A DNA stretch of 64,000 nucleotides from positions 26,784,001-26,848,000 of the forward strand of contig CM069162.1 in the NCBI GenBank assembly GCA_035221665.1, given 5' to 3'. Source of the stretch: Okamejei kenojei (Eukaryota). Below are positions 3,019-47,900 of the stretch, piece after piece (position 1 is the stretch's first letter; each line of letters begins with the position of its first letter). The notes beneath the pieces are model-generated. The model saw only the letters and a program-made list of their open reading frames with translations. It did not search any database and was not told the DNA's origin. Position numbers and translations under genes: made by a program.

Positions 3019-3106
3019 TTATCTCTAGTCTAGTGACGGAACGAGCCTGATTTAATTCTAGGATAACAATCCTCGGCCACGTGACGTCAGCCCGGGAAGG
3101 ATAAAA
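3019..3106 (+). promoter_or_regulatory. Proximal promoter of distal natriuretic-peptide gene: GATA site, E-box/[14 protein letters not shown]-like box
   Basis: TTATCT 3019-3024, CACGTG 3078-3083 overlapping perfect CRE TGACGTCA 3082-3089, GATAAAA 3100-3106, about 95 nt upstream of ATG 3201. The same CRE-TATA module is present in the paralog. Confidence 0.7.
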
Positions 3107-3200: not shown

Positions 3201-3290
3201 ATGGGCATCTACACAGCTCACTGCTGCGGGCTCTTGCTTGTCTTTCTCCTCCAGGTCCACGCCAGACCCAATGCCCAGCAAAACCTCCAG
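3201..3290 (+). CDS. Distal NP gene coding exon 1 (signal peptide + start of propeptide)
   Basis: 90 nt, ATG to phase-0 GT donor at 3291; same length as exon 1 of the proximal CNP. Confidence 0.9.
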
Positions 3291-4712
3291 GTAAGAGAGA
3301 GCACTCACTCCTGCTATAAGATTCATTGTTCGTAATATTCACTCTTTCGCTTTGAGCCTTGTGCTATGGTAAAACGTGGATAGTGCAGCGACTGTTCTGT
3401 AGCAATGAACTAACTGCAATTTTATTCAATGTTTTCAACATTCGTCAAAGATATGGAGGGGTTACTGTGATTGTTATCTCACTGGCCAGCGTCTTGGTGA
3501 AGGGTTAGTTCGGAGCTTGAAGGCTGGGTCACCAGCGCTGGGGGCCGAGCAGAGCATTGGGCTGTGTAATGCTCAGTCTACGGTGAGAAAACGGTGGTCT
3601 TATTGACAAGTATTGGCAGATTTCAGCCCAATCTACCCGGTACCGCTGTGGCCGTGCTCTTTCCAGAGATCACGGGGTGTGCTCTGCCCCCCCCCCCCCC
3701 CGTCCGTCTGAAACTGTCCTACTTTCCACAACAACAAAAAAAGTTATAGCCAGAAATACTCTTTGGTATTTTCAGTAAAATATGTCATTGTCAATTCTTC
3801 TGTCAGAAGTCAAGGACCAATTCTTAAGAGTGGGTCAGAAGGACTCTCCCGCGACAAGAGACGCGCTGGCCCATTGCTTTCATCCAACTCACCTGTACTT
3901 TAGAAAGTAGCCTTCTTAACCGCCCATCCCAATAAGGTCTGTCTGTGTATGGCGATCGTTTTCTTGGACGTTCATCTTTGAGTATCACGGCATGTACTTA
4001 CCATTTGACCATAGCTGAACTATAAGTCTGGCCGTCAGGTGAAAACTGTAGTTGCTCAATCGTGATTTACAACCGAATTTGAAAAAAAGAAAAGGTTTTG
4101 AGAGGATTTCAACATATTACATTTCCTATCCAAAAATAGAGATAGTATCAATTTAAGATGAATATTTCAAAAAGTCTTACTTAAAAAGTTCTACATTGGC
4201 GGTCATTAAACATCCATATTGAATAACTACATGGTAGTGGGGATAACCCCATTTGATAGATATATTTCAACAGACTCGCCCTACGTTGTTCTGTCATGAA
4301 TCCATATCCAGTTCTATAATTTATTTCCATGCACTTAATTTAGGTTGTTTAACAAGTTTACGAAGTTGACTCTCCTCATTCCTGTAATTTGCAGGCTTTG
4401 ACTCAACGACTGGAGGACGTTGAGCGCTTACTGGCTAATGAAGAGGCCGCCGCCGAAGCAGACGACACATCGCCGATCGACACCTCGTTCCATCTGCAAG
4501 ATGGCCAACGTGAACTGGAAGGACGATGGGACAGGAACTCGCAGGACCTCGAAAGCAGACACACCGTTTCTGATGGTTCCCTGCTTAGAATCCTCCAAGA
4601 CATTGCCAACGGTCCTCTCAGATCCAGGAGCAGAAGTAAGAAAGGGTCAACACGAGGCTGCTTTGGAATGAAGATGGATAGAATTGGTGCAATGAGTAGC
4701 CTGGGATGTTGA
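3201..4712 (+). CDS. Natriuretic peptide precursor, CNP-type, divergent distal paralog (135 aa); coding exons 3201-3290 and 4395-4712
   Basis: Exon 1 MGIYTAHCCGLLLVFLLQVHARPNAQQNLQ (signal peptide) ends CAG/GTAAGA. Exon 2 starts after TTTGCAG and runs ALTQRLED...RSKK-GSTRGCFGMKMDRIGAMSSLGC-stop. 17-residue Cys ring CFGxxxDRIxxxSxLGC, no C-terminal tail. Confidence 0.95.
4395..4712 (+). CDS. Distal NP gene coding exon 2 (propeptide + mature 22-mer)
   Basis: AG acceptor 4393-4394; stop TGA ends 4712; donor AG/GTAAGA at 4727, 14 nt after the stop. Confidence 0.95.
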   Translation, partial: ALTQRLEDVERLLANEEAAAEADDTSPIDTSFHLQDGQRELEGRWDRNSQDLESRHTVSDGSLLRILQDIANGPLRSRSRSKKGSTRGCFGMKMDRIGAMSSLGC

Positions 4713-5296
4713 TCGTGTCACTTTAGGTAAGAGATTTCTAACTGGGCAAGTACCACTCTTCACCGATCACTTTTACTTTACGTTTAAGATGAAAACAGTT
4801 ACTGGTTGGATGTAATTAACGAAAATTTTGGTTAAAAAAAAAAGGTTACATTTACATCATGTAAAATAAATTTAGTTTCGCAAATTATTAACAGTGGGCC
4901 AACTATTGGGAAGTCTAGAATAAAAGTAGGAATATCATAGATCCTGGTACTCCAATCAATTACGTTTGCAACTTGAAGTTGGCTGAAAACAACAGAGAAG
5001 GTCGCAGACTCTGGATATAACTGACATTTCACTCCCAACTCAAAGAAAGCTTTCTTCAATGGCAAAGAATGATGTTTATTTCATTAATTCCATTGTTGTC
5101 CAGATGCAGAAAGTGAAAGGAGTACACGCAAACGTGCATTTTGTGAAAGGAATGTAAAAGGGAGGTTAAAATACAGTTTTCCCAATTATGCACATGAATT
5201 AAAAACCCACTCTATTTGAATCAAATCACGATTAAAACAATCATTCGGTTTTAAATCTGAGGCACATGTGAAATTCACTTTCTCTCTTTTTACCAG

Positions 5297-5860
5297 GGCT
5301 TCAGTGAAAGCGCGGGACTGCGAGAACAACGCACTTTCCACACGTCAAAGTTTACTTCCACAACAGCTCTTTCGACTCGTTTTCTGCCAACCTATTGTAC
5401 CAGCTCTAGTGACACCGTAGGATGTTTACAAGTTTGATTTTGCTGGCAACCATCCTTAATAGGATCGTGTAAAATGTTTCCGAATTTAATTTGTGTTTGT
5501 ATGAACAGCTATTTATATTAATTTAAGAGAAATGTATTTATTTTAAACTCATCTGTGTGATGTTCGTCTAACTGTTGGAACGCGAAGTTGGTGCAATTGA
5601 TGTGGAAGTCAAAATAAGTCAGTAGTTGTAAAATTAACAAGGATACGTTAACACTACATTATTTATTTTATTTGTACTTTTCCATCGATGCTGAATTTTG
5701 TTCATGACATCTTCGGCGTGTGAGATATGAAAACAACCTTCATTTACTTTTGGCAAATCGTTACCATTGAAAATCAATGTTGTTTCATGAGGGTGCGGGA
5801 TAAAGATCAATAGCTTTCCATTTTAAGGTGAGCGTACAATAAAAGCACAAAGCAAAAGAA
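5297..5860 (+). other. Non-coding exon 3 (3'UTR) of distal NP gene
   Basis: Acceptor TTCTCTCTTTTTACCAG ends 5296; ATTTA clusters 5484-5670; AATAAA 5838-5843. End position is approximate. Confidence 0.7.
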
Positions 5861-16135: not shown

Positions 16136-16161
16136 TGACGTCAGCCAGGAGAGCAATAAAA
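16136..16161 (+). promoter_or_regulatory. Proximal promoter of CNP gene: CRE + TATA-like AATAAAA
   Basis: TGACGTCA 16136-16143 and AATAAAA 16155-16161, about 90 nt upstream of ATG 16251; aligns with 3082-3106. Confidence 0.7.
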
Positions 16162-16250: not shown

Positions 16251-16340
16251 ATGAGCGGAAACGTGAACTTCTACTGCGGACTCTTGCTTCTGCTCCTCTT
16301 CCAGGTTCACGGCAGACCCAGATCCGATGACAGTCTACAG
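16251..16340 (+). CDS. NPPC: CNP coding exon 1
   Basis: 90 nt; CAG/GTAAGA donor at 16341. Confidence 0.93.
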
Positions 16341-17410
16341 GTAAGATGTCCAACAGTATCTAGGGAACAACAGAGCAAACCAAACTCTGGCCATTGAATC
16401 AGTTCCAATGGCTACAGCGGTCTAGACCTCTCCGTAATGGGCGATCCGTGAGATTGGACAAAGCGAGGCCAGTGATGTATTTCGTGCCTCACTGACTGTT
16501 GGTGACTAGGTAAAAAACGCCACATTTCAACTGTTGGTCTTGTGCGAGTGAGATTTCGGCAAATCCCTTTCCTATGAACGGAACCGTCTCTCGTAGTAGT
16601 GGTCGAGCAGACAGCAATCGTGAACCGATTTCTAGTTAGGAACTGGTGCTTAGGGGGTCGCTTCACACCTAATGAATCGCGACTGAGTTAATCGGCGTTT
16701 CAGTGATTTCCAGGTTTTGGAAACTTCAGCTACCTCTCCAGGTAGACGCCATACTTGATATAAATTCCAAGACAAGTCGCAATAGCTTTCCCCTGAGATG
16801 GGTAAAGTTTAACGGAGATGTGCGGTGTAAGTTTTTTTAATACAGAGGGTGGTGGGTTGCTGGGACCCGCGGTCAGGGGCGGTGGTGGAGGTAGGTATGA
16901 TAGTGGTGTTTAAGAGGCACGAAGATGTGCGGAAAATGAGGGATATGTATAACATGCAGGCAGAGGAGATTAGTTTAACTTGGCATCATACGCGGCACAG
17001 GCATTGTGGCCAAATGACATGTTTCTGTTCAGTTTTATATTCAACGCGTACAGTGAACAATTAAATCCGGCCTCTCAATCCTTCCTGTTTTCTCTTGTTC
17101 CCAGGCTCTGACCAGACTGCTGGAAGATGAATACGGTCACTACTTCACCTCCGAGGACCTGAATAATGAAGCACCCGAGACACCGCCAGCCGCGTCCCTG
17201 TCCGATCTCAACGCTGACCAGTCCGATTTGGATCTCCCCTGGGACCGCGAATCCCGGGAGATTGCCAGCCGCCCCATCCTCGCACGAATCCTCCAAGACA
17301 TCAGCAGCAACCCCCTCCGATTTCGAGGCAGAAGCAAAAAGGGACCATCTCGGGGCTGCTTTGGAGTGAAACTGGATCGAATCGGGGCCATGAGCGGCCT
17401 GGGCTGTTAG
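16251..17410 (+). CDS. NPPC: C-type natriuretic peptide precursor, classical elasmobranch CNP (CNP3 lineage by synteny; 131 aa); coding exons 16251-16340 and 17105-17410
   Basis: [30 protein letters not shown] + [25 protein letters not shown]...[28 protein letters not shown]-stop. Closely resembles known shark prepro-CNP; canonical GT/AG. Confidence 0.97.
17105..17410 (+). CDS. NPPC: CNP coding exon 2
   Basis: Polypyrimidine tract + CCAG acceptor ends 17104; TAG ends 17410; donor AG/GTAAGT at 17425, 14 nt after the stop. Confidence 0.96.
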
Positions 17411-17934
17411 CGACTTGCGTAGAGGTAAGTGGGGCACTGCGAGATATCCTCGGGAAGCATGTCGCCAATTGGGAAAGCAAATATACGCCGTTCAGTGTAA
17501 ATAAGTTGGCTGTTTTCCGGCTACAGCGGGAAAGGATCGCTTAAATTATTTAACTTGAACTGCAGCTCTTTAGTAATGTACAACTGGTTTACGAAAGAGT
17601 GTGCCGCTCTCGTCTCATTTGAAGGGCATTCAATCAATGAATTTTCAGTAAATAATCACAATTTATTCCCCACAATTCGGAGCAAAACATTGCAAACCTA
17701 CCTTAAACTTCCATTTCAGCACCTTGGACACATCCCTTCAGCCTGTCCGACCCCCGTTTCCCGCTTCCCACCCACGATCACCACCGCCCATTCCCTCATA
17801 TCCTCTCCTAACGCATCGCCTGATTACTTTTAATTCGTAAATATTCTTTACCTGAAGGATAGAAGCCCTGGCAAAACAACCTCCATTAAAAGTAACACTT
17901 TCTTGAACCGCCTGCTACCTACTACTAATCCTAC

Positions 17935-17939
<5 letters not shown>

Positions 17940-17982
<43 letters not shown>
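17940..17982. repeat. (CT)n microsatellite in CNP intron 2
   Basis: About 21 perfect CT units. Confidence 0.95.
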
Positions 17983-17984
<2 letters not shown>

Positions 17985-18125
17985 TCGTACAATCTGCTTA
18001 TTATTGCTATCCTTAATGACATAACCAGTTCCCTCTCACTTAGTGTAGATACAAGAAACTTTAAATGCTGACTTTTAGTGGGAAAGAAAGCTTATCCCAG
18101 TGAATCCCATCACCTATTAACACAA

Positions 18126-18324
18126 GACAAAAAATACTGGAGAAACTCAGCGGGTGAGGCAGCATCTATGGAGCGAAGGAATGGGTGACGTTTCGGGTCT
18201 GAAGAAGTGTCTAGACCCCAAACGTCACCTATCCCTTCGCTCCATGGACGCTGCCACACACGCTGAGTTTTTCCAGCATTTTTGTCTACCTTCGATTGTT
18301 CCAGCATCTGCAGTTCCTTCTTAA
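18126..18324. mobile_element. Palindromic Penelope-derived element in CNP intron 2
   Basis: Inverted arms around GTCTGAAGAAGTGTCTAGACCCCAAACGTC; imperfect TSD ACCTATTAA(C/T)ACAA. Confidence 0.7.
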
Positions 18325-18446
18325 ACCTATTAATACAAAGTTGCTAAATCAATATTAGTATGGTGCGTGTTAATTCCTATGTTAGATTTGTACTGTGGGC
18401 ATTGGCTCCTTAACTCACACAGTTGACTTTTCTCTCCCATTCCCAG

Positions 18447-18835
18447 GGTCTGACTCCAAGAGCAACACTGCCGGCACCGCCTGCTCATCAATCTCCCCGC
18501 ATTCAGTTCACTCTTCCGACCTTTTGCTCCACTATCTCCGACCGATGGCGAGTAGCTTCCCACCTGTAGACTGTTTACAAGCTGGGATTTAATCCTTAAT
18601 GTACATACAGTGTCAGCTGCTATTTAAACAATATTTAATTCTATTTATATTAATTATGAAACTATTTATTTGTAACGTGTTTGATTTTCTGTTGCTATGG
18701 CACTGACGGTCAGTCACTTGCTGCGAGCTCTGGTGCAGATTAAACAAAGCCATCAGTTGAGTTGTTCGTTTCAGTCAATGTTGACACAGTGTGCGTGGAA
18801 CCCATTGCAGAATAAAATTTAAAGGAAACTTGCTC
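18447..18835 (+). other. NPPC: Non-coding exon 3 (3'UTR) of CNP gene
   Basis: Acceptor TTTTCTCTCCCATTCCCAG ends 18446; ATTTA clusters; AATAAA 18811-18816. End position is approximate. Confidence 0.75.
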
Positions 18836-26948: not shown

Positions 26949-29900
26949 CTAAAGGAAAGAAAAATTGAAATTTTGGTAAGATTTCTAACTGCTCAAGCAC
27001 ACACAAAGTTGCAGAAACTGCCTTGCCTCTCATCTTCCCTTTCTTTATCCAGTGAGATTCTTTAAAAAAAAAAACATATTTTTCTTTTAAACACATGCCT
27101 ATTTGCATAATCTTGTAAACTGATATCCTTAAGGTCGCTTGAGGAAATACCCCAACATTCTACCCAAATTCCTGTAGGAAATTTGAGGAAAACCAATGAT
27201 TGTGTCCTTTCAGAGTGGGATTTCAGCATCTCCATAGACAAATGGACATACCTCCACTGAAATCTCTCAGACCACTCACCCAGTTGCCTTCCCCAAATGC
27301 TGAACCACTAAACACCACCAATCTTTAGCTTCACCCGACCCCCTAACTGACCCATTTCCCAGTACAATTCCCACCGATCCTACATATAATCAGGAAACCC
27401 ATTGTCCCCAACTCACCTCTCCTACAGCATTGACCACTGGTAGGTGCCTCAGTCCCATGGTACGAAACAGGTTGAAGACCTGAGACACGTGTGTGCTTGG
27501 CGAGACTGTATATGGACAAGGATTCATGTACGGTGTGATATCCTATTGCAGAGAAGATAACTAGTTCAAAATAGATATCTGACAATCAGGGACAGCCATT
27601 TGTAAACCGTTGTCCAACATATTACCAGCTTTGGCACAAGATGCAAACCTGCTACTGTTCCAACTCATGTTATGACTTTTTAAACAACCATTAACCCAAA
27701 AAAAAAAACTCTGCTGGAGGAACTCAGTGCGTCCAGCAGAATCTTTGGTGGGAGCGGGGGTGGAAAAGAAGGAATTGTTGATATTGACATTCTGCAAGAG
27801 GGAAGGATGCCTGGTTATAGAGATTAACTAAAATATCTCAAGGAAGTTTTCTTGCCCAAAGGGATTAAGAGATCCAACACAAAATGATGTTGAGGATTAG
27901 ATGGGTAGATCTGATAAATCAACAAGGATCCTGGTGGATAAGACAATGCCATTCAATGTGACTGTAGCCATTCCATGGCAGATTAATTTCACAAGTCCTG
28001 ACCATGACAGGAGGAAAGGAGGGCTCCACCAGCGCCAGGAGGGGAGAGAAAGGTTACAGAGCATGCATATCTGAGCTGAAATGACTATGCATTACTGGGA
28101 GAGCCATGAAAAGGGAATTACCTACTTCCCCAATAGGTCAGACTTTGTGCTAATCATATGATGGGGACCACAGCATTCTTAAACACGAGGGGTAATTTAC
28201 AGAGGCCAATTAACCAACAAACCCACACATCTTTGGGATGAGGGAGGAAACCGGAGCATCCGGAAGAAACCCATATGGTTACAGGGAAAACATACAAACT
28301 CTACTGAAAATCAGAATCAAACCTGGGTGTCTGGCATTGTGAGGCAGCAGCTTCACTAGCTGAACCAAGGATGCTGAAGCAGGGTACAAATGTTCTGGTT
28401 GATTACATTCTCATAGAGATTAACAAGGGGGTGGGAGATTGCAACTTCACGTGGTCCGCCCTGTTTCGACAAATGCAATCAACCCGGCGTGCACAATCAA
28501 ACAAGATCAAATAGAACAAGTTGTCCGACAACTTTAGGCTGTGCACGCCATACGCAAGAAGAAGAAGAAGAAGAAGAGATTAACAATAAAGATGGGTGGA
28601 TAGGAGTGATGTCAGAATGAGGTCCCAGCAGCCATTTTCAACCAATCTATTGTTTCTTACAAGCTCATCTCTCCCCACACTTTTGTAAAATATTTTTATT
28701 AGAAGTAATTACATATTAAGAAAAAATATAAAGTCAAAGAGAAACAAAAATAAATTATTATCGTCACATACATTCTTAATATTTTTAAAATTTACAATCA
28801 ATCTTATTTGTACTTCTATAATTTTTTTATTTTATAACAGTAGGAAATAAAGATAGATAGTAAAAAGAAAAAGAGGGAAAAAAAGAGATAAACTAATTGA
28901 GTGGAATATTAAGTAAGATAGTCTTCATTGGAGATATATTCATGATCTATTGTATATAATTTTTCATCTATTCCTTCATTCAGGCTTCAGTCATGGCCTC
29001 GAACCGGACCATCTTAACCCTTTAAATATTCAATAAATGGAGACCATATTCCTCTGAATTGATCTAACCTGTCCATTAGGACAAGTCTTAATCGTTCCAG
29101 ATGAAGTGTCTCCGACATTTCTGTAATCCACATTTTGATTGTAGGGAATATGGGACCTTTCCAAAATCTTAATATTAATTTTTTACCAATTATTAAACTA
29201 TAACCAATAAAAATTATTGTTGTGTTGTTAGTATCTGATCCGTTTCTAATATTCCCAATATAATTAATTTTGAGTCTGGAATTAAATTTGCATTAACTAC
29301 ATTTGAGATTATCTTAAAAATTTCTATCCAAAAATGAGTAATTTTTATACATTTTGTGAATGAATGCATTAAATTAGCTTCTAATTGTTGACACATCACA
29401 TATTGCGGACATATTTGAGAAAATTCTATTTAATTTGGACTTTGAGAGATGTAATCTATGTATAACTTTAAATTGTATCAAGGAGTGTCTAGCATTTAAT
29501 GAACAGTGGTGTATATATTGTAAACTTTCATTCCATACTTCTCTATTGATTACTTGACCTAGTTCATTTTCCCATGCTTGTCTATATTTATCCTTATTTG
29601 GTAAATCATTTTCCAATAAAATATTATAAATATATATTAATTGTTCTGTATTCGGATGTTTATTTAAACATTCATCTAAAATTTCTGTCTTTCTATTCCT
29701 AAAATCTAGTGTATTTGATTTAACATAATCTCTAATTTGTAGATATCGAAAATATTCCTTAAAATGTAATCCATAATTTTGTCGTTGTTCCTGAAATGGG
29801 AGAAATAAATTTTCCCTGTAGAGATCACCAATCTTATTTATTCCATAGTTCTTCCATTTTAAGAAACCTTTGTCCATCAATGAAGGTTTAAAAGAAATAT

Positions 29901-32900
29901 TATTTACTATTGGAAGAGCTAGTGGTGCATTCTGTAATTTTAATGTTTTTTTTATAATTGTTTCCAAATACGTATTCCACTTTCTATTATTGGGTTTCCT
30001 CTATAAGTTTTCTTATGTATTGTAGTATTAGCAAATACAATCAAACTAATTTCAAAAGGTAAACAGTCTTCTTTTTCAATTTTTAACCAATTTGGTTGTT
30101 TATCTAGTTCTCCCAACCAGAAATTCATATTTTTTATATTAACTGCCCAATAATAAAACATAAATTTAGGCAATGCAAAGCCACCATTTATTTTTGATTT
30201 ACATAAATGCTTTTTAATTATTCTATGATTCTTATAATCCTAAATAAAATTGGTAACCATAAAGTACAGTTTCTTAAAAAAAAATTTAGGAAGATATATC
30301 GGGATCATTTGAAACAAATATAGTAATTGTGGAAGAAAATTCATTTTTATCGCATTAATCTTACCTAGCATTGAAATAGGTAATGTTTTCCAATATTGAA
30401 TATTCTTAGATAATTTATTCAATAATGGTAGAAAATTAGATTTAAATAAAGAATCATATCTTTTTGATACATAAATTCAAAGATATTTATTTTTTTCATT
30501 TGCAATCTTAAAAGGACATTGTTGTAATATATGTAAATTATTTCCCATTATTGGCATAAGTTCACTTTTATTCCAATTAATTCTATATCCTGAAAACGAT
30601 CCAAATTGAATTATTAAATCTAACAAGTTAGGGATACTAATTTCTGGTTTTGTGATATAAAGTAATACATCATCTGCGTACAAAGAGATTTTATTTTCAG
30701 TTTCCTTAGTTTCATATCCATATATTTCAGGGTGTGATCTCACAGATTTTGCTAATGGTTCTATTGCAAGTGCAAACAATAGTGAAGATAAAGGGCAACC
30801 TTGTCTGCAGCCTCGGAATAAGTTAAATTTAGTTGTTAGCACTTGGTTTATTAATATTCTAGCTGTTGGCCTAGTATATAGTAATTTAACCCATGTTATA
30901 AAGTTCTCTCCCAATTGAAAAAATTCCATAACCGAAAATAAATAAGACCATTCAATCTGATCAAAAGCTTTCTCTGCATCCAACAGAATAATTGATAAAT
31001 CCTTATTAATGTTTCTTTTCAAATATATAATATTAAATAATCATCTCAGATTGTTTGAAGAGTATCATTTTGGTATAAATCCTGTTTGATCTGAATGAAT
31101 TAGTTTATTAATCACTTTGTTTAGTCTTTGTGCTAATATTTTTGTTAATATTTTTTGATCAGTATTTAAAAGAGATATAGCTCTATATGACCCTGGGTCG
31201 TCAAGATTTTGATCTAATTTAGGTATAAGGGTTATAATAGATTCATTGAATGATTCTGGTAATTTCTGTTGTGTATAAATGTGTTCATATAGTGTCTTCA
31301 AACGTGGAGCTATCCTATCATAAAATATTTTATAAAATTCTGCTCCAATACCATCTGGCCCTGGAGTTTTACCATTTTTTAATGATCTAATAGTTTCTTC
31401 AATTTCTTTAGTAGTTATTTCGACATTTAATAATTCCCTATCTTCTAAATCCAATCCATTTAGATTACAATTTTTTTTAAATGTTTCTACTCCTATTCGA
31501 TTTTCTTTTGTTTTAGCTGAATATAATTTTTTATAATGGCATTCTCTGTATCTAATTGTTTAATCTCTCTTTCCAATGCCTGTTGTACCTTCCGATTCTC
31601 TTTATTATAAAATGCTTGAGAAGACATCAAAATTCCCCGAACATACGCCTTAAAAGTTTCCCATAAGAGGGATGATGATATTTCTGGTGTATCGTTTGTT
31701 TCAAAGAACATCTTAATCTGTTTTGTAATATATTCTTGAGTTATTTTGTCCTTTAATATTTGTGGATTAAATCTCCATTGACCTTGTTTTTCCATTTTAC
31801 CCGTTATTTTCATCTTAAAAGTTAAAGGTGCATGATCTGAAATTATAATATTATGATATTTTGGATTATACGTAAGTGGGATAAGTTTTAAATCTACCAG
31901 AAAATAATCTATTCTTGAATAAGTTTTATGCACGGCTGAGTAAAATGAGTATTCTCGTCCTGTTGGATTTTGCAATCTCCATACATCTTTAATATTACTG
32001 GTGTCTATATATGCATTTATTAACTCACTGGAATGTGATTTAAGTTTTCGTTGTTTTGATGATCTATCCAAATAAGGATCAAGTGTGCAGTTTAAATCTC
32101 CTCCAATTATTAGATTGTGTTGTGATAATTTAGGGATTGTATTAAATAATTTTTTTTTAAACCGCGGACTATCAAAATTTGGGCCGTATACATTGACAAA
32201 AATCACTTTTTGTGTATATAATTCTCCTATTACAATAATATATCTACCGTCACTATCAGTTATTATTGAAGTATGTTTAAATGCAGAGCCTTTACGAATT
32301 AATATTGCTACACCTCTAGATTTGTGTGTAAAAGAGTGATATACTTTATCAATCCATTTGGCTTTTAATCTATGTTCTGCCTCTTTTTTAAGCATGTATC
32401 TTGGATAAACGCAACATCTATTTTAAGTGCTTTTAAATGTGCTAATACCTTACCTCGCTTAATTGATTCATTAATTCCTTTAACATTCCAGCTCCCCACA
32501 CTTTTGAAAGCAATTTCTTGTCACAGATGCATAAAAGTAAACCACCAATATCAGGGACAGCTGTTGATTAATGCTTTATTTGAAACAACAACGTGAACAA
32601 ACACTTACCACAATCATACGAGGATTGAGGAGAGTCAGATCAAGGTCATGAACATCAGGATATCGTGGATAATCTTCGGTCATTTCAGAGTATGATAGCC
32701 GTGGTTGCGTTGAACTCTGAAAAGCAGAGAGAACAAGACTGAGACAAGTAGCCCAGAAACACAACAGAGAAAATACTAAAACAGATAATTAAAGATGAGA
32801 ATGATTTATTTCCTATATTTTTCATCACCTAACTATAATAATTCCTATTTCTACACTGTTGCTGCTACTGTTTCTCAAGTAAATCCTACTGATGCAGAAT

Positions 32901-35900: not shown

Positions 35901-38900
35901 AATCACAGAAATCTCAGGCACAGGTGATGGCCATTTGGCCCATATTGTCTTTGTCATACTCAAAAGTTGTCTATCCTCTTCCCTTTTCCCTCTTCTTGAT
36001 TTGCAGTTACAGATTTGACATTTAAAAAAAAAAATTGGACCACAAAAATGTTGGAATAACACAGCAAGTAATCTTACATCTGTGAGCAGAGAAACAGGGT
36101 TAAAAATGCAGTTGATCTGCTGCAAATGTCCAGAATTTTGTGTCTTGTTTTAAGATTTCCAGCACTAGCAATTATTTTGATGTTCATCTGTCAAAATGAT
36201 TTCTGTTTCTACTACCTGATAACATCTAGCTTTAAGGTAGACAAAAGTGCTGGAGAAGCTCAGCGGGTGCAGCAGCATCTATGGAGTGAAGGAAATAGGC
36301 AACGTTTTGGGCCGAAACGTTGCCTATTTCCTTCGCTCCATAGATGCTGCTGCACCCGCTGAGTTTCTCCAGCACTTTTGTCTACCTTCGATTTTCCAGC
36401 ATCTGCAGTTCCTTCTTAAACATCTAGCTTTAACCTGCTCCATCTTCTGGTTGAAAAGGATCATTAGCTCCGCTCTAATCCTTTAACCAATTATCCAGTT
36501 GTGGGTCGCTCTACTAATGGGAAATAAGTTCAATATGAAGGTTCTATAGATTTGGCATGGATTTACTTGGAAGTAGCTATTTCTAGCCATTTATGCCAAA
36601 TCATGTCTTTGTAAAACTAGCCTTTCCCCATTTGAGAAATTTTGCCTCTTTCTTAAACTCACCCCTATTTTCTGCCTTCAAAGATCTATTCCTAATTTCA
36701 TATTTACCTCCCTTTCTTTTGAAATTGCAGTTATACAAGTTAGTGAAAGACATGTACTGACATTACAGGTTTGATTTTGGCATCAGTGAAGCAGCAGCCA
36801 TTCAGAATCAGATTACTACAATTGATCATCACACATGAAAGAACTGTGGTTAACCTTGTCAGCTGGAATAAGTGTTTATGATTCAATGGCATCAAAACCA
36901 ATCACTTCAAAATTCATTTTGTTTCTGTTTTGTGGGAACGTGCCATGTGTAATGATGAATTTCCAAAGATCTTCTACCGCTGCACCATCGAGAGCATCCT
37001 TACCAACTGACCGGAAAGCACTGCAGAGGGTGGTAAAAACTACCCAACGCATCACCGGTTCCTCACTCCCCTCCATGGAGTCTGTCCATAGCAAGCGAAG
37101 GGCGCGTAGCATCGTTAAGGACTGCTCTCACCCCAGCCACAGACTGTTTACCCTCGTCCCATCCGGGAGACGCTACAGGTCCCTCCGTTGCCGGACCAGC
37201 AGGTTCAGGAACAGATTCTTCCCTGCGGCTGTTACAATACTTAACTCTGCACCTCGGTGATTGCCAGTCACCCCCCCTGGACACTCCTTCCCCCAGTATA
37301 ATTGCACTACTGATACTGTTTGTACATATATATATTTTACCGTTCATTATTCTAAGTTTGCTCTTCTGGGGGGATGCTAACTGCATTTCGTTGTCTCTGT
37401 ATTGTACACTGCACAATGACAATTAAAGATTGAATTGAATTGAAAAAAAAAAGATATCCTATGATATGCATAGGAAATGCTGTTCTTTAAACTACATTAT
37501 CAGGCTCTCAAATCATCCCGCACAACCCCAACCATAAACCTACCTCAAGACCAAACTAATATGGAGTTTGTACAGGTTGCACTAAGCATTTCAGTTTACA
37601 CTACTATTGTTTGGTTACCTAGAATGTCTAATAAATATACAACCACTAATTATTCGTTGTGTTGTTGCATTAATGTGCCTGTAAAGTTTCAGCAAGTAAG
37701 AATTTCATTATTTGCCTCCCAGTGCATATAAAAATTAAACACTTGACATCACACTAATACAAGTTTACCTTAAACCTAATATTGTTGCTGATGAGGATGT
37801 TTCCCTTCATGAATTCCTTCTCATTCCCTCTATTTTCCGTGACGACAGGGTATGCATGATGTGCTGTGGTGCGCAAAATACTGACCAATGATTGGATCCG
37901 GGTATGAGGATAGACGTAGGTTAGATTTGGTTCCATGATATCACTGGCTGTCAACCTGAGATACATGAAATTAAATTTCATTCTTTCAAACTATGGGGTT
38001 TATTTTACAATGTATTCCCATGAGCCTCATCAAATATCCACTGGAGCCACTGTACCGCCCCACCTGCTACAATATGCTCAATGTGAATGGGAAATCTGAA
38101 ATCAGAGAGGTACCCCCGATACACCCATCATATTACTCTGCAAGAACCCAAACATCTGGTGCATCAGCAACTACCACTCCCCTGGATTTCTTCCTCCCTT
38201 CTTCTGATTGATTGCAGTAGAGATAGCAGGAAANNNNNNNNNNNNNNNNNNNNNNNNNNNNNNNNNNNNNNNNNNNNNNNNNNNNNNNNNNNNNNNNNNN
38301 NNNNNNNNNNNNNNNNNNNNNNNNNNNNNNNNNNNNNNNNNNNNNNNNNNNNNNNNNNNNNNNNNNNNNNNNNNNNNNNNNNNNNNNNNNNNNNNNNNNN
38401 NNNNNNNNNNNNNNNNNNNNNNNGTTCAGGGAAAGGGAGGTGTTTGTAGAAGTAACCTAAATTTGAAGAATTCAGTTCAATTATGAGAATGTTTAAAACA
38501 ATGTTCAAATAGGGGAAATGAAATTGGCGTTATGTGCATCGGTCAAATAGGCAAACCATGATTTTAAATCAAACCCAACCAATTGCTAATTCATTAATTG
38601 ATCACATGGGTTAACTATCTGACATGCAAAGATCCTGCTCGCTATAGGATCTTTGCTGACAAGAGTCTTAGACGTTTAACACCTACTTATCCATTTCAGC
38701 CTCAGTCTCCCATTCAAGCAACGGGACACCCCGAAGTGCCACATGCAAGTCATAAATTCCTTTATTGAAGAAATCTCCAGTCCACTTTGCCACCTGGAGA
38801 AACATGAAGCGAAAAGGATGAAAATCTTTGAAAAAACAATTTAACTGAAGCCAAAAGTTAGAAGCATTTGATACTTTGCAGATTGTATTAAAAACAAGTC

Positions 38901-41900
38901 TAATTGTTATTAAGCATCAGTCTCATGACTCCACAGCCCATAAGGCAGCTCAGAGGTACTGAAACCATAGCTCCAGATATTTTACCAACTATTTAGTAAG
39001 TGCAGCTGCAATTGGTAATGCATATAGCTACAGCTAATTCTGACACTGCCAATATTGCAGCCTGACACTTACCATTTATGAACATTGCCATTCAGAAGGA
39101 TAAGGCGCTCAGCATTCAATAAGATCAAGACTGATCTGATTTTTACTTCCACCCCATAATATTGCCTATTGTTTGTAACCCTTTACCCTTATGTCCATCA
39201 ATAATCCATCTACCTCTCCTTTAAAATTATTCAAAGCCTTTGAGGAAGATGGTTCCAAAGACTGATGACCCTTTGGAGGGGAAAACTTCAACTCATCTGT
39301 CTAAAATAGGCACCCACTTATTTTTAAACATTGGCATCAAATTGTTGATTTTCCCACAATAGGAAAGATCCTCACTACATCCAAACAATCAAAATCCCTC
39401 AGGGTCTTAAGTATTTCAGTCAAATCATTTAGTTTTCTAAATTCCATAGTCAAACCGAGCACAGCCTGTCCAACTCTTCCTCAATAATACAATTGCAAGA
39501 TTATTCGAGCGTTCCATTAATTTGCACCAGTGCAGAAAATCAATTCCCAACCTTCATACCAACCCCACCGAACGGACCTACCATCAATGTGACCATGATG
39601 GGCAATCCATATGTGATTTCATTGGTTGATTCAATGAGAATGACAGTGAGACTGATGGTCATACGAACCACACCCCCAAGGAATGCAGCAGCTCCCACTA
39701 AAGCAAAAGTTCCAGAATAGATGTGAGACATCCCGATGTACCTGGGGCAGTTTAAAAGAAAAAATCTCTTGAAAGCAATTACATCTAATATATCACAATA
39801 CCACAGGGTATGAACTGAAAACGTCACCTGTCCATCAATACCCGCCACAGATGCTGCCTGGCCTGCTGAGTTCCTCCAGCATTTGGTATTTTGAACCACC
39901 CAACTTTTGTCTGCAATGTAACCACATTTGTTGTTTTTTAAATCCCTTCCCTTATCCTTAGATGTGAAATATATACTTGTGATGCCTGTTCCTCTGCATG
40001 TAATCAGATGCTTGTTGTAATTAATTGCACATCCACATTTGCATTAATCATGAAATAACAGCAGTCACCACAGACACAGATTGCACTCAACTTATCCAAA
40101 CAACACTCACGTTTTCAGAATGTTTGCCACAAGTCGACCATAGGCAGCACCGCACAGCAGCGAGGGCACAAAGAGTCCACTGGGGACAGATAAACCATAC
40201 GTCCAACAGGCCAGAATAAAGTAAAGAACAAAGAAAATGCTCAGAGTGACAGGACTGAAGGTTCCTGTGGGAACAAAAGCAGTTGAACAGTTGATATTAG
40301 AAAAGAGCAAATTCCTATACTCGATCCAACATTAAACAATGCATGCCACATTGGATAGGCCAGTCTGTATAGACACCTGGATCAGATGAATAATTTTAAC
40401 TATCAACTAATCTGTGGCATCTGTTCTCTTTATTTATGAGCAATAAAATTGCCAGCGAATTGGGACCAGTCGTCTGTGAGAGTACAGAACTAGAAAACAT
40501 TTAGCCATCTCAAGTCTGCTGTATCACTCAGATCTTTATTCAATTTACCGATCTCTTTAACTTGCCTGCAACAAAAATATCACATTTTCCTGCCCTCCCC
40601 CTCCACCCCCCCCCCCCCCTCTCCCTTACAAGCAGACATTTACATGGAGCCAAAATAAATGCAAATTATATCACCAAATTTGCTGCAACTCACCATCTTG
40701 GTGGAATAGTTGGAGTATGGCAGTCTCTTGTGGGTTGAAGAACAAAGTAGCCATGTCATTATAGGTATTATTGCGACAGAAAAGGGTTTTGATGCTGGAA
40801 TTCACATCCTCCTCAGCTGGCTGAGGGAAATTAAATTGAAGTATTTTACAACAGATTGCAAAGTAGCAGGATTAATTCAGCTACGGGAGCTGCTGTTTGT
40901 GAACCAGTGAATCCATCCAAAAACAAAACATTGCCAGAAATTTAAACAAAGAGCAGAAAATGCTGGAAATCCAACACTAGCATCTGCCCATATTATATGG
41001 TCTACCCAACACTAGGGAAACCAATCAGAGAGTGAGTGATCACAAGAGTGGCCCCAACCTTTCAGTTGCCATCATTTTAATTAAGCTTCATTTTTTTTTA
41101 AATTGTAAAAGGAACTCACAAAATGCTTAAGTCTGATGACGTCAGAACACAGAGAGTGGTGAGTCTCTGGAACTCTCTGTCACAGAGGGTAGTTGAGGCC
41201 AGTTCATTGGCTATATTTAAGAGTGAATAAGGGGCTATGATACTGGTTGGATGATCAGCCATGATCATATTGACAGGCTCGAAGAATGGCCTACTCCTGC
41301 ACCTAAACTATGCTAACAATTTTGAACACGTACACCTTAAATAAAAGCCCTTTCTTACTTTGCTTAAAAATTAGTTTGCTATTGCCAATATGATTTTCAT
41401 TGAAAATGCTGACAGCAACAACTGTTGGTAGGATGGAAATAAAACAAATGGTGTCCGCTAAAATCATCAAGATAACAGTGAACCTAAAACATTTCCTCTC
41501 CCCCAAAATTATTGCAAACAACCCAGTTTCCCCAAGAATACAAGACTGTGAATGAAAGTAAAATCATGCACATGACACTCACCTGCTGTGTTACATTGTT
41601 GCCGTGTGTGTGTGAAGGGATCTCCCTACACTCTCCCAAAGTCACAGAGGCTATAAAAACGACCATCGTTGTAACCATAGCAACTAACAGACTCTCCAGG
41701 ATCCTGAAGATGAAGACAGAGGCTGTGATGAAAAACTTTCACATGATGCTTCAACTTATTTTGTACAGATTTTTTATGCCCAACTGTTTCAGCATTTTCA
41801 TCACGAGGACCAGATTTTAAATAATACTCAAGAAATGTGTGGTTTACACCCATCTCTCAAGAAGTTTGTATTGCACGCCACAGCAAAAATTGAGTAGGGC

Positions 41901-44900
41901 AAGATCGAGTGACCAAAAAAAACCCACATAGATATTCTGAACTAATAATAACAGGTTGGAAGATGTAAATTGAAAAAGGATGTCACGGTAGAACTTGTTT
42001 TTTAATGTCTTTCACAGAAGGTAGCCTGGTGATATTCAGTCTCCGTGAAATCTCATTCCAGCACATCCCTCACACCACCATCTTCAAGCTAAGAACATCC
42101 AAGCTAGTTCACAAGTGCAAAATGACCTGCTGGGAAGTCCACGAGTCAACAGCCTAGTGACCTGCAATGCAGGACTATTTGCATGCCAAACAGAAACCAT
42201 GTCCTTAGCAGAACTATTAAATCTTGTAACCAATGGATCAGATTGTTGTTCTGCAGTCCTACCATGTCTAGGTAGGACTGTAGATGCGGCGGCACGCGAG
42301 ACTCACTTTGCAGCGGCCCCTACAGCCTGTCTGTCTTTTTTTATTTTTTGTCTAGTTAAATGTAGTTGTTCGTGTTTTGTTTGTACTGTTTATAACTGTG
42401 TACATGTGGGGGGTGGAGGGGGGAGGGGGAAACTTTTAAAATCTCTTCCCTGCACGGGAGACCTGACTTTTTCCCTGTCGGGTCTCCGTTCTCGTTGGGG
42501 CCTAGTACCGTGGAGCGGCCTCCGACCGGGACGACCTAGGGGCTCCAGTCACAGAGCCTGCGGAGCTGCGGACTTACCATTGTGGGGCTGGTCGGCCTCG
42601 GAGCGTGGGGAGCGGTGGTGGCTCGCCGCTGCGGCCCGACTCCAGGGCTCCAGATCCAGCTGCGGCCCGACTCCGGAGCTCCAGCCCGACTGTCAGGATG
42701 TCGGGAGCTCGCGGGTCCGGGTGGGAGACCACTCTCCGGAGCTCCCACAACACAACTTCTCCAGCCCGTGTCGCGGGGTTGGAACGACCCAGAGCGGGGC
42801 CGTACATCGCCCGGCGCGGCCTTGATGGCCGCGGGACATTCCAGCACCCGCCGGGGCTCCATATTTGTGATTTTTGGGCCTGGAGCGGGGCCGTACATTG
42901 CCCGGCGCGGCCTCAATGGCCGTGGGACTTGGCACCGCCCGCCTGGGGCTTCGACATCGGGGGAGAAGTGGTGCGGGGGAGAGAGAAGGACTTTGCCTTC
43001 CATCACAGTGAGGAGGAGATTCACTGTGATGGATGGCTGTGTGAATTGAATTGTTTGTGTGTTTTTTTTATGAATTGCATGGTAGAAACAGAATTTAGTT
43101 TGTTCGAGATTTTTCTCTGAGATTCGAATGACAAGTAATAAAATCTAATCTAATCTAGTTGTGAATAGCAGTGGGCAATTAAATACCTAATGGGAGAAGA
43201 CTCCATAAAACATCCCCATCCTCACCAATGTTAGGACTCAGCATGTGGGTGCTAAAGAGTCTGCAATTGCAAACATAGAAGTGTCAAATAGAGAAACACC
43301 TCAGAACTCCACCATCACAAATGCAAGTTTCCTCTTAATTCAATTTGTTTTAAGTGATGTAAGCAGTAGCTGAGAACACTAGATATTGAAAAGGCAGCCA
43401 AAAAATATGCTAGCTGAAGAATCAAAGACCTACTCTGCAGATTGAAGAGCCTCCAACAGAGCTGTTCCAGTACAGTTCCAACACTGGCATCTACCACACA
43501 ATGTGGAACATTGCCATGCTCTGTCCTGTCCATAAAAGGCAGAACACCAAATACAAATAATTTCTGTCTGTTTAAGTCTATTTACCAAAATTGCAGAATA
43601 AATCATTGATAGTGCTATCTAGCAATATTTACACAGTAAAATGTTGGTTTAGCCAGAACCACAATGCTCCAGATTGAGCACCGCCTTAGTCTGAATATGG
43701 ACAAGAAGCTGAATTCTGGAGGGGTGAGAGTGACTGTCTTTGACTTCAGACAGAAATTGACCAGGTATGGAATATATGCCCAGGTAAAACTGAAGCCAAT
43801 AAGCAGAATGAAAACACTTCAGTGTTTGGAGTCACAGCTCACACAAAGAAAGAGTACTTGATTGTTGGGGCAGCACACCATTGCAACGGTAGAGTTACTG
43901 CCTTACAGAGACCCGGGTTCAATCCTGACTACAGGTGCTATCTGCATGGAGTCTGTACGTTCTCCTTGTGACCGTGTGGGTTTCCTCCCACATTCCAAGA
44001 TGCACAAGTTTGTAGGTTAATTGGCTTCTGTACATTGTCCCTAGTGTGTAAGATAGACCTTGTGTTTGGGTGATTGCTGGTCGCCGAGGACTCAGTGGGC
44101 CTGCATCCACATTGTATTTCTAAACTAAACTAAATTGACCCAGCCACAAGGCATAACTACAGGAATTCCTCAGTGCATTGCTTTAGGCCAAACCACCATC
44201 AGTTGTTTCATTAATGATCTTCCAGGCATCAAAAGGCCACAAGTATTTACGATTGCCCTTGTTCACCACTCCTCAGCAAAAGTATTAACCTGTCTCTGCA
44301 TGCAGCAAAAGCCAGACAAAATTTAAGCACGTGCTGATTAGTGACAAGTAACATTCATGCCAATGTACCAGGCAATGCCCATCTTCAACATCAGTCTAAT
44401 CACCTACTCTTTATATTTATTGTAAGTAGTAACACACATAATCAATGTCTTTGTAAGCCAAAACATTGTAAGCCAAAGTATTGGTCAAACCAGGCATAAA
44501 TTCCATAATGATGAACAGGCCAAAAGTTGGCTATCCTGCAGCATGTGACTCACCAACCGACATACCAAGGCCTTTAAGACACAATTCAAGAACTTGGTGT
44601 ACATTTGCTTGGATGAACGTAGCACCAACAACTCACAAGAAGCATGTTACCATCCAAGACGAAGCAGCCCGCTTAATTGCCCCCCCGGAGCCGAAACATT
44701 CATGCCTTCCACCAGCAGTGCACAATGACTGCAGGGAGTACCATCAAGAAAATGTACCACTTTTACTTGCCTAGGCTACTCCAGCAGAATTTAGCAAATC
44801 CATGACCTCTCCCACCAAGAAGGATAAAGGCAGAAGGTGCATAGATACACCACCATCTGGATGTTTTCCTCCAAGTTGCACCATCCTGACTGGGAAGTAC

Positions 44901-47900
44901 CTGGTTTCTAAATCGTTGTGGCTAAATCTTGGAACTCCCTCCCCAACATCACCATGGAAGTATCTTCAGGTTGGAGGACTGCAGCGCCACCTTCTCATGG
45001 ACTATTAGGGACGGGCAACAAATGCTGGCCTTGCTAGCAAAACCCAGATCCTGAAAATGAATAATAAACAAGTAGAAGATTGGGGCACTGGGGGCAACCA
45101 GCACCTGTGCAACTCTACTCTGGCCAAATACAGCATAATCAGGAGTAGTCTGAATAAGGTTAAAAGATTAATAATTCGGAATAGGGTCAAAGTTTGTGAA
45201 ACTCTAAAATGTCAAGAACTTTCTCAGTGACCATTGCTTACCGGACAAACTTAGCCTTTGGGTGTACATTTCGCATCCGGTACTTTGCCAACCTTCTATT
45301 CAAACAGTTAAACAATGCTCCCAGAAGTCCACCGATCAAGCCCATGATAATGAAGAATGCTAGATCCACCGCCGTCCACAAATGGCACTTCTTGTCTCCA
45401 TCTGCACACTTAAAGACAATGGCCGTAGCAACAAGTCAAATATCGAAACTGAGAATCAATAAACCTTTGAAAGACATTCACAATCCAGCTCACATGTACA
45501 ACGAACAGCGTGACCACCAACACAAATTTCAATAGGTTTACCAAGAGTCAAGCATTAGTACTTGAAATATCGAAAACACCATGCAACAGATCGAGAAAAC
45601 ATGCACATCATAGCCATTGATGTTATGAAAATAAATCCGAAACATCTAACCATCAGGCTTAACTTAGGACTATGGTAGTGTGTGAAAATATGCCAGAGAG
45701 CAAGCAAGCACATGAACGCCCCAACAAGGGGGCGCCGATGAACTCTGCCTAGCCAACGGTCTGTCTGTCTTTTCTTTCTGTTTTGTTATTTTAAGTATGT
45801 GTTAAAACTATGTTTTGGTGTTTCTTGGTTTGTTTTGTGTGGGGGTGGGGAGGAGGGTTTGGAGGAAACTTTTTTCAATCTCTTACCTCGACGGAGATGC
45901 GATTTTTTCCGTGTCGTATCTCCGTCCCCCATTGTGGCCTAACATCATGGAGCAGTGCGGCCTTTCCTGGAGACCGACCCGGCGCTTCAGCACAGGTGCG
46001 GCGCGGACTTGCCATCATGGAGCTGCGATCCCCTTGCCGGGATCAACTGCGGGAGCTCCAACCATGGCCCTGTGGACTTTAACATCTTGGAGCCCGGTTT
46101 AAACATCACGGTCCCTGGTTAGAGACTGAGTCGGGGCTCCAATCTGTGGTAAGTTTCAACCGTCCCGACGAGGGAATTCCATCACCCCGACGCAAGGGCC
46201 TCAGATCGCCGGCTGCAGGAGCTTTGATGGCCCCGACCGAGGATGGTTCGACAGCCCCGACCGCAGAGAAGAAAGAGGGAGAGATTGGACTTCCATCACA
46301 GTGAGGAATGTGGGGAGCCGCTGTGATGGATGTTTATGTTTAATTTTATTATATGTGGTTGTGTGTCTTACTGCTTTTCACTTGGTGTGGCCGTATGGTA
46401 ACTCAAATTTCACTGTACCTTATGGTACATGTGACAATAAACCCATCTTGAATCTTGAACAAGGTAAGTGGATAGAGCATAATCCATGTGCAGGGGAACA
46501 GAAACAGAGCAAAGACAAACATGGGAATGGATGGATAGACAGATGTGCAATTTGAATCTTTCACGCCCTTAAAAATCTCACAACAGAAATGAAGATAACC
46601 AGAATATCTGTTCTTAGTAATTTTGGTTAGGGACAAGTGAAATAGAGAAATCCTTTTTCCAAACCCTGGGATCCCTCTTGGCCAACCAAGGCTGCCACAA
46701 CATTTTGATTTAATCTCTCATCCAAAAAATAGCACATTTGACAATAACATGCAATCACTTAAATACTACACTGGACTGTCAATCTCAACTTTGTGCTCAA
46801 ATTTCGGAAGAGAGTCTTGATCCTAACTTTTGGTTTGACTCCAAGGTGAAAGCACTATTTATTGAGGCTATTCTACTTCAATAAGTAAACTTTCAAATAT
46901 CTTTAAATTATTGACAAATTGGACAAAATGTTTCAGATACTAAGTTAAGGCTGTTATGAAAAATAATCAAATAAACAAAATACCTTGAATTCACCAAAGT
47001 TAAGCAGCCCTGGCAGTTGGAAGGAGCCCCAGCTTCCGTAGCGGATACCTGATCGGAACAGATTCAGCGTGAAGGTGGCAGACATTGAGCAGAAGAGCTA
47101 GAAAATGGAGAAGAGTAAATGGTCAAAATATAGGACCATGACTTACCACAGAATTCCAGCCAAAATACTACAGCTCTGCATTGAGCATGCCCCATTAAAA
47201 CAAACATCATATTCCAAAGAAGGGTCCCGACCCAAAACGTCGCCTATCCATGTCTCCAGAAATCTACTTGACCTGCTGTTACTCCAGCACTTTGACGCAC
47301 GCTCAAGATTCCAGTATCTGTAGTGCCTTGTATCTACAAACACCACGGTCACATACTTTCGCCTCCCAAAAACCTGGCAATGCAAACTATTGTATCACCT
47401 GCAACTCACAAAGAATACCAACATCCCATCTTGCACCCCAGCCTGCGAATGACCCAGCAAAAACATTCTATGAAAACTTGAACATTTTTCCCCTTGCTAT
47501 CTTGCTTCTGGCAGTAACCAGTCTCACTCACCACTTTCCAGGTTAGGGCCTGGTTCCAGAAAGAGGATCCTTCCTCCAGACTGAAGAGTGTCCCACCAAT
47601 CGGAGCCCCAAAGGCTGCAGCAACTCCTGCTGCTGTCCCTGCCGAGACAAAGTCTCGCTTGTCCCTGTGAAGCCAACATAGCCTGTAAGTGTCAGTTTCA
47701 TAGGATCCCACATTAGTGGAGAATCCAACCAAAGACAACATCATCCAACTAAAGGAGAGAGTTTTAATTCACTGCTTCGTGAAAGTGGGCAATCTGACCC
47801 CAAATTGCCTCCACTATGGCTTCATTGAGCTCAATCAGGAGCAACTTGGAGGCAGATCTATACTCCATCTATATCTGTAATAATGAGATATAAGATTCCC

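Follow-up and report, generated by a model that had tools for sequence, protein, structure and literature searches.

We identified a predicted target site of the miR-30 microRNA family in the 3'UTRs of two tandem CNP genes of the skate Okamejei kenojei, within a 64,000-nt stretch of contig CM069162.1 (hereafter, the window). We consider it fairly likely that the element is a canonical miR-30 family site that is older than the duplication of the CNP genes and has been kept in both. The sequence of the site, its location in spliced RNA contigs and its retention in the paralog are direct observations.

The two CNP genes (3201-5860 and 16251-18835; Table 1), here termed gene A and gene B, encode precursors with 51% protein identity. 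The stop codon of gene A (TGA, 4710-4712) leaves 14 nt of UTR before the last junction, and that of gene B is TAG at 17408-17410. The closest named proteins to gene A exon 2 are the 'CNP-like' proteins of skates (89-90%), and the gene A protein shows 74% identity to sawfish and 62-65% to shark sequences (9 hits from 13 candidates). The gene B protein is 79% identical to Squalus and 89% to Trygonorrhina CNP; judged by these proteins, gene B is the orthologue of the elasmobranch cardiac CNP (Squalus ANFC and its relatives), with gene A standing apart from it as a tandem paralog. A tree was built from 29 rows (27 of 49 proteins, picked to cover the named cartilaginous fish and eight outgroups, plus both window genes, with lineages assigned by hand); sharks and batoids were found within both lineages, with support of 99/94 for A and 88/89 for B, indicating that the duplication predates the split between sharks and rays. 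A chimaera protein grouped with gene B in the same tree, without firm support. Gene A was found across sharks and rays, where it is annotated merely as 'CNP-like', and its mature peptide is divergent. To our knowledge, older work recorded a single natriuretic peptide in elasmobranchs. We additionally observed, at about 39500-47800 on the minus strand, CLC chloride channel exons that probably belong to CLCN6 and converge on the natriuretic genes. CLCN6 adjoins NPPA and NPPB, and the CLC/CNP arrangement in the window recalls that.

Table 1. Features of the two CNP genes and their 3'UTRs (positions in the window).
Feature	Position	Strand	Details
Gene A (CNP-like paralog, 135 aa), coding exon 1, signal peptide	3201-3290	+	
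Gene A exon 2, remainder of precursor and natriuretic ring	4395-4726	+	Pfam ANP, E 4.7e-14
Gene A exon 3, wholly 3'UTR	5297-5860	+	AATAAA at 5838; end approximate
Strongly conserved middle of gene A 3'UTR, holding the site and AU-rich blocks	5389-5683	+	
Possible pairing to miR-30 3' end	5402-5410	+	AGCT 5402-5405 aligned in gene B
miR-30b/c-complementary 14-mer, gene A 3'UTR	5417-5430	+	8mer seed site 5423-5430; nt 9-14 pairing 5417-5422
9-nt block common to gene B	5452-5460	+	18592-18600 in gene B
AU-rich blocks common to gene B	5509-5543	+	15-nt exact match 5509/18641; TATTTAT at 5510, 5535
Gene B, classical elasmobranch CNP (131 aa)	16251-17424	+	exon 1 16251-16340, exon 2 17105-17424
Gene B exon 3 (3'UTR)	18447-18835	+	AATAAA at 18811; predicted from sequence and paralog alignment
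Homologous miR-30 site, gene B 3'UTR	18566-18579	+	8mer 18572-18579, mismatches opposite nt 9-10

For gene A, a reading of the sequence alone (the sequence-only reading) had claimed a perfect 14-nt miR-30b/c complement in the distal 3'UTR of a natriuretic peptide gene. The complement was confirmed as an exact 14-mer, GTAGGATGTTTACA at 5417-5430 (+), which is the reverse complement of miR-30b-5p nt 1-14 and the sole exact copy on both strands of the 64-kb window; the lone further match with 2 mismatches in the window (12/14) is at 18566-18579. The site does lie in the natriuretic peptide 3'UTR, but it lies 135 nt past the stop and about 410 nt ahead of the AATAAA at 5838, placing it in the proximal part of the UTR, and 'distal' fits solely in the sense of the natriuretic peptide gene farther from the CLC gene. 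The miR-30b-5p sequence is printed for cattle (PMC11764194), miR-30b in small-RNA reads from bamboo shark liver is identical to it (PMC3789328), and the start of turtle miR-30c matches miR-30b over nt 1-14 (PMC6048248). All miR-30 family members share nt 1-11, and the others pair less far with the gene A site, miR-30d to nt 11 and miR-30a/30e to nt 12. The sites of both genes are Watson-Crick complementary to nt 2-8, with an A facing nt 1, so that the gene A site is an 8mer with additional pairing to nt 9-14. By chance, GTAGGATGTTTACA is expected 2-4e-6 times in gene A exon 3. Assuming 250 mature microRNAs, any microRNA 14-mer is expected 6-9e-4 times in the exon and 0.13-0.21 times in the whole window on both strands; thus, in so large a scan, little weight attaches to the 14-mer by itself. 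As the sequence-only reading had been free to pick any microRNA, an independent test of the match was needed.

We investigated transcript evidence in contigs assembled from 4 of 11 listed runs, with X1, X3, X5 and X8 among them; all 11 were available as assembled contigs, and none is recorded as RNA. The GT..AG joint from 4726 to 5297 was present in both RNA-type contig sets (X1 and X3), whose RNA-type status is a guess that the splice joint supports. The X1 contig spans 5295-5960 with six substitutions and one gap, none of them in the site, and X3 stops at 5366, short of it. The spliced joint and the covering X1 contig together place the gene A site in spliced RNA. Its presence in the mature mRNA, on which the sequence-only reading depended, was thereby borne out, the site lying within spliced exon 3. 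We additionally noted that the X1 contig extends beyond the AATAAA at 5838 by 120 nt or more and carries another 273 letters, a hint of a longer 3' end or of read-through; more polyadenylation-type signals are found downstream of gene A at 6338 and 6408.

The comparison of the two paralogs is independent of the microRNA chosen in that reading, and provides the main support for the predicted miR-30 site. The 8mer stands 126 nt into exon 3 in gene A and 125 nt in gene B, corresponding to 140 and 139 nt past the respective stops. When the genes are aligned, all 8 positions of the 8mer agree, as do the 4 opposite nt 11-14, but neither of the 2 opposite nt 9-10; elsewhere in exon 3, identity amounts to 47/104 upstream, 58/94 over the 115 nt that follow the site and 83/162 farther downstream. 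The miR-30 8mer is kept above background in the paralog: given a background paralog identity of 45-62%, a match of 8/8 has P about 0.002-0.02 (hand calculation). When gene B exon 3 was shuffled 20000 times, the 8mer occurred in 1.9% of shuffles, at most 20 nt from the homologous offset in 0.2%, and near that offset with at least 4/6 upstream matches in 0.04%. The gene B site also pairs to nt 11-15 of miR-30b/c at 18565-18569, an extra pairing whose energy does not reach significance (P 0.06-0.08 for miR-30b/c). Since the 8mer and the bases opposite nt 11-14 are kept and those opposite nt 9-10 differ, what the two genes share is a canonical miR-30 8mer together with limited pairing beyond it. 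Most simply, the full 1-14 match in gene A is the shared 12/14 site with two central matches added, for which selection is unneeded, the chance of two such matches on the shared 12 bases being about 1 in 16; equally possibly, gene B decayed from a perfect ancestral site. The proposal that a natriuretic peptide 3'UTR carries a miR-30 target site is therefore supported, on the strength of paralog evidence that had been left unused when it was made.

Other blocks are common to the two UTRs. The word ATCCTTAAT (5452-5460, 18592-18600) is present in both, about 12-21 nt past the miR-30 site, and a 15-nt word shared by the AU-rich blocks is reached in 0.05% of shuffles; a 10-nt shared word is found somewhere in 24% of shuffled A/B pairs, with position unconstrained. 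Because some of these blocks are as long as the site or longer, its retention may have a cause other than miR-30. Pairing of 5402-5410 to the miR-30 3' end is not significant alone (P 0.09-0.38). The context of the two sites favours targeting only to a moderate degree: they are predicted to be of medium to low accessibility (43rd and 23rd percentile), and AU content of their flanks is modest (0.40-0.67).

Among skates, the X5 and X8 contigs each cover the gene A stretch in one piece, and comparison with them rests on 40 listed of 81 substitution rows, with 7 indel rows left out. No substitution falls in the 14-mer among 38 listed of 55 for X5 and 38 listed of 64 for X8, an outcome with P 0.51 for zero change across 14 nt. 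Shared substitutions among the listed rows number 1 in the 295 nt of 5389-5683 and 27 in 555 nt of intron, a depletion with Poisson P 9e-6 for these rows and for a stretch picked after viewing the data. The middle of the gene A 3'UTR is thus under strong constraint, extending far wider than the miR-30 site, and because the whole of it is nearly frozen, conservation among skates says little about the 14-mer itself. The constraint agrees with the title of a 2006 paper, which reportedly announced that elasmobranch CNP mRNAs are very highly conserved in their UTRs.

The same data bear on whether the extended pairing has a function of its own. The sequence-only reading had described the match as far beyond a seed match and possibly slicing, such that gene A would have turned an old seed site into a miR-30b/c Argonaute2 slicing site, cut between 5420 and 5421. 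We regard this as quite unlikely, although gene A shows unbroken pairing across nt 1-14, including nt 9-12 with miR-30b/c, and miR-30c pairs with it in register at 18/21 positions. Duplex energy as in gene A was reached in 0.15-0.9% of background draws given the 8mer, a figure that is not independent since the site was selected by that reading. Defective slicing by fish Ago2 is described as confined to teleosts (PMC7765534), so that the skate enzyme may be competent. However, pairing in gene A breaks at nt 15 and 16, and so does not extend to at least nt 16; by a yardstick that concerns 16-bp and not 14-bp targets, slicing is efficient only given strong pairing at nt 9-12 (PMC11100590), and the central pairing of miR-30b/c is intermediate (-2.7, versus -5.0 for GCGG and -0.3 for UUCA). 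Gene B, mismatched at nt 9-10, lacks continuous pairing across nt 9-12. In shark liver, miR-30d, which pairs just to nt 11, accounts for 73432 reads versus 5338 for miR-30b (PMC3789328). With pairing that ends at nt 14 and is moderate in the centre, slicing is not favoured, and the earlier claim was not supported: the paralogs differ opposite nt 9-10, and the sequence preceding the 14-mer pairs with the microRNA no more strongly than background does (P 0.11-0.95). We accordingly give little credence to a scenario in which, after duplication, one microRNA family came to act by two mechanisms, cutting in A and ordinary repression in B. Were it true, the gene pair would be a natural experiment on the origin of vertebrate slicing sites.

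A function apart from miR-30 is unlikely, but less so than slicing: the block might have been kept as an RNA-binding-protein element or as a forkhead site in an exonic enhancer. The core fits RYAAAYA, the forkhead core consensus, on the minus strand of both genes, the entire mid-UTR is constrained, and miR-30 accounts neither for the AG 3' of the 8mer nor for the downstream 9-nt block, both of which are also common to A and B. Against this, forkhead cores are frequent (6 and 4 copies in the two exon 3s, 144 in the window), a forkhead site leaves the 4/4 match opposite nt 11-14 unexplained (alone P about 0.04-0.15), and folding predicted no stable RNA structure for the two sites (z -0.92 to 0.46). 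The predicted folds also lacked an AGGATG/CATCCT stem that gene A might form. We find it very unlikely that the CNP mRNAs act back on miR-30, as a degradation trigger or sponge pairing with the seed and the 3' end. In its favour, the AGCT upstream of the site, aligned in both genes, complements the four bases that end miR-30b; 8 of nt 15-23 of miR-30e can pair in gene A, and nt 18-23 in gene B; and the Serpine1 trigger is known to act on miR-30b/c (PMC6081425). The criteria given for triggers are at least 7 consecutive 3' pairs, a bulge of 2-8 nt and an energy ratio of at least 0.7 (PMC8887481), whereas consecutive 3' pairs number at most 5 in gene A and 6 in gene B with microRNA sequences of 21-23 nt. 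By energy ratio (computed with RNAduplex in place of RNAhybrid), gene A reaches 0.82-0.93 but is centrally paired, and gene B has an open centre but a ratio of 0.56-0.64; pairing of the 3' half has P 0.04-0.38 over six tests. Pure chance, with the word under no selection, is a reading to which we attach almost no weight: some microRNA 14-mer would be expected at the per-window rate given above, under the same assumption of 250 microRNAs, but 12/14 bases are retained collinearly in an old paralog. A copy of a mir-30 gene on the minus strand was also considered and rejected, as no Rfam mir-30 match was found up to E 10 and no hairpin was detected (z 0.32 and -0.62); Rfam gave neither mir-30 nor any other credible family at the site.

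We return to canonical repression, and consider an ancient miR-30 repression of both CNP mRNAs by the ordinary mechanism to be probable from the shared site. Argonaute loaded with miR-30 would bind the 8mer, which would be open to every family member, with miR-30b/c gaining slight extra pairing beyond it. Such binding would lower the stability and translation of the CNP mRNAs, and miR-30 may act alongside the AU-rich elements 80-120 nt downstream. Binding, repression and co-expression of miR-30 in the skate heart are what we infer here. The class concerned is the canonical conserved 8mer site with 3'-supplementary pairing. Like members of that class, the skate sites match nt 2-8 with an A at nt 1, lie in a 3'UTR and have been long kept, and gene B is typical in leaving nt 9-10 unpaired before pairing at nt 11-15. 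In contrast, gene A is paired through the centre (nt 9-14) and covers just nt 13-14 of the usual supplementary region of 13-16. The microRNA seed rule follows PMC10899785.

We found no report of a miR-30 site in CNP or other natriuretic peptide mRNA in the literature searched, which included few subscription papers. In the miR-30a/b/c rows excerpted from a human prediction table, NPR3 is present and NPPA, NPPB and NPPC are absent (PMC4848958), and no miR-30 is among the microRNAs shown in the excerpt of a study on human NPPC (PMC13204929). In mammals, miR-30 is expressed in the healthy and suppressed in the failing heart, miR-425 represses NPPA and miR-100 represses NPR3, and miR-30 affects proBNP glycosylation indirectly via GALNT1/2 (PMC5766980). 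The putative skate site resembles the miR-425/NPPA and miR-100/NPR3 pairs in placing the natriuretic peptide system under microRNA restraint via a 3'UTR, but involves another microRNA and other genes, and is common to two ancient paralogs. With GALNT1/2 it would share an effect of the miR-30 family on cardiac natriuretic peptide output, which in mammals is indirect, through glycosyltransferases, whereas the predicted skate site lies directly in the hormone mRNA. With the Serpine1 trigger it shares extended miR-30b/c complementarity in an mRNA 3'UTR (PMC6081425, PMC10899785); however, triggers pair the microRNA 3' end and leave the centre open, and gene A does the reverse (PMC10899785).

We additionally observed other features in the window. 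In intron 2 of gene B, 17715-17731 (+) matches 16/17 positions of an RE1/NRSE consensus, with no such match in gene A; matches at up to 2 mismatches were found in 9/100 shuffles. REST controls mammalian NPPA and NPPB. Both promoters contain an 11-nt block with the perfect CRE palindrome TGACGTCA (3082-3092 and 16136-16146), about 8 nt ahead of a TATA-like box, which in gene A reads GATAAAA and is reminiscent of the GATA-type TATA box found in mammalian BNP. At 29377-32422 (-), several pieces of open frame were recognised by eye as similar to LINE endonuclease and reverse transcriptase. A tRNA-derived repeat probably accounts for a weak match (35 bits) to tRNA at 49831-49903 (-), and an assembly gap of 190 N occupies 38234-38423. 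The sole locus from a metagenome scan (L001, 1-2078) is a fish-like CNP gene, most likely from host DNA; it is distant (45% over 61 residues) and was rejected as an orthologue, and no miR-30 seed site was found in its contig.

The proposed repression is itself an ordinary mechanism; to a microRNA specialist, the one surprise would be slicing in gene A. The shark rectal gland is driven to secrete salt by CNP that the heart releases (PMC11000733). If our reading is true, miR-30 would provide a direct post-transcriptional brake on CNP that has been in place since before sharks and rays parted, and its site would be a candidate reason for part of the long-noted conservation of these UTRs.
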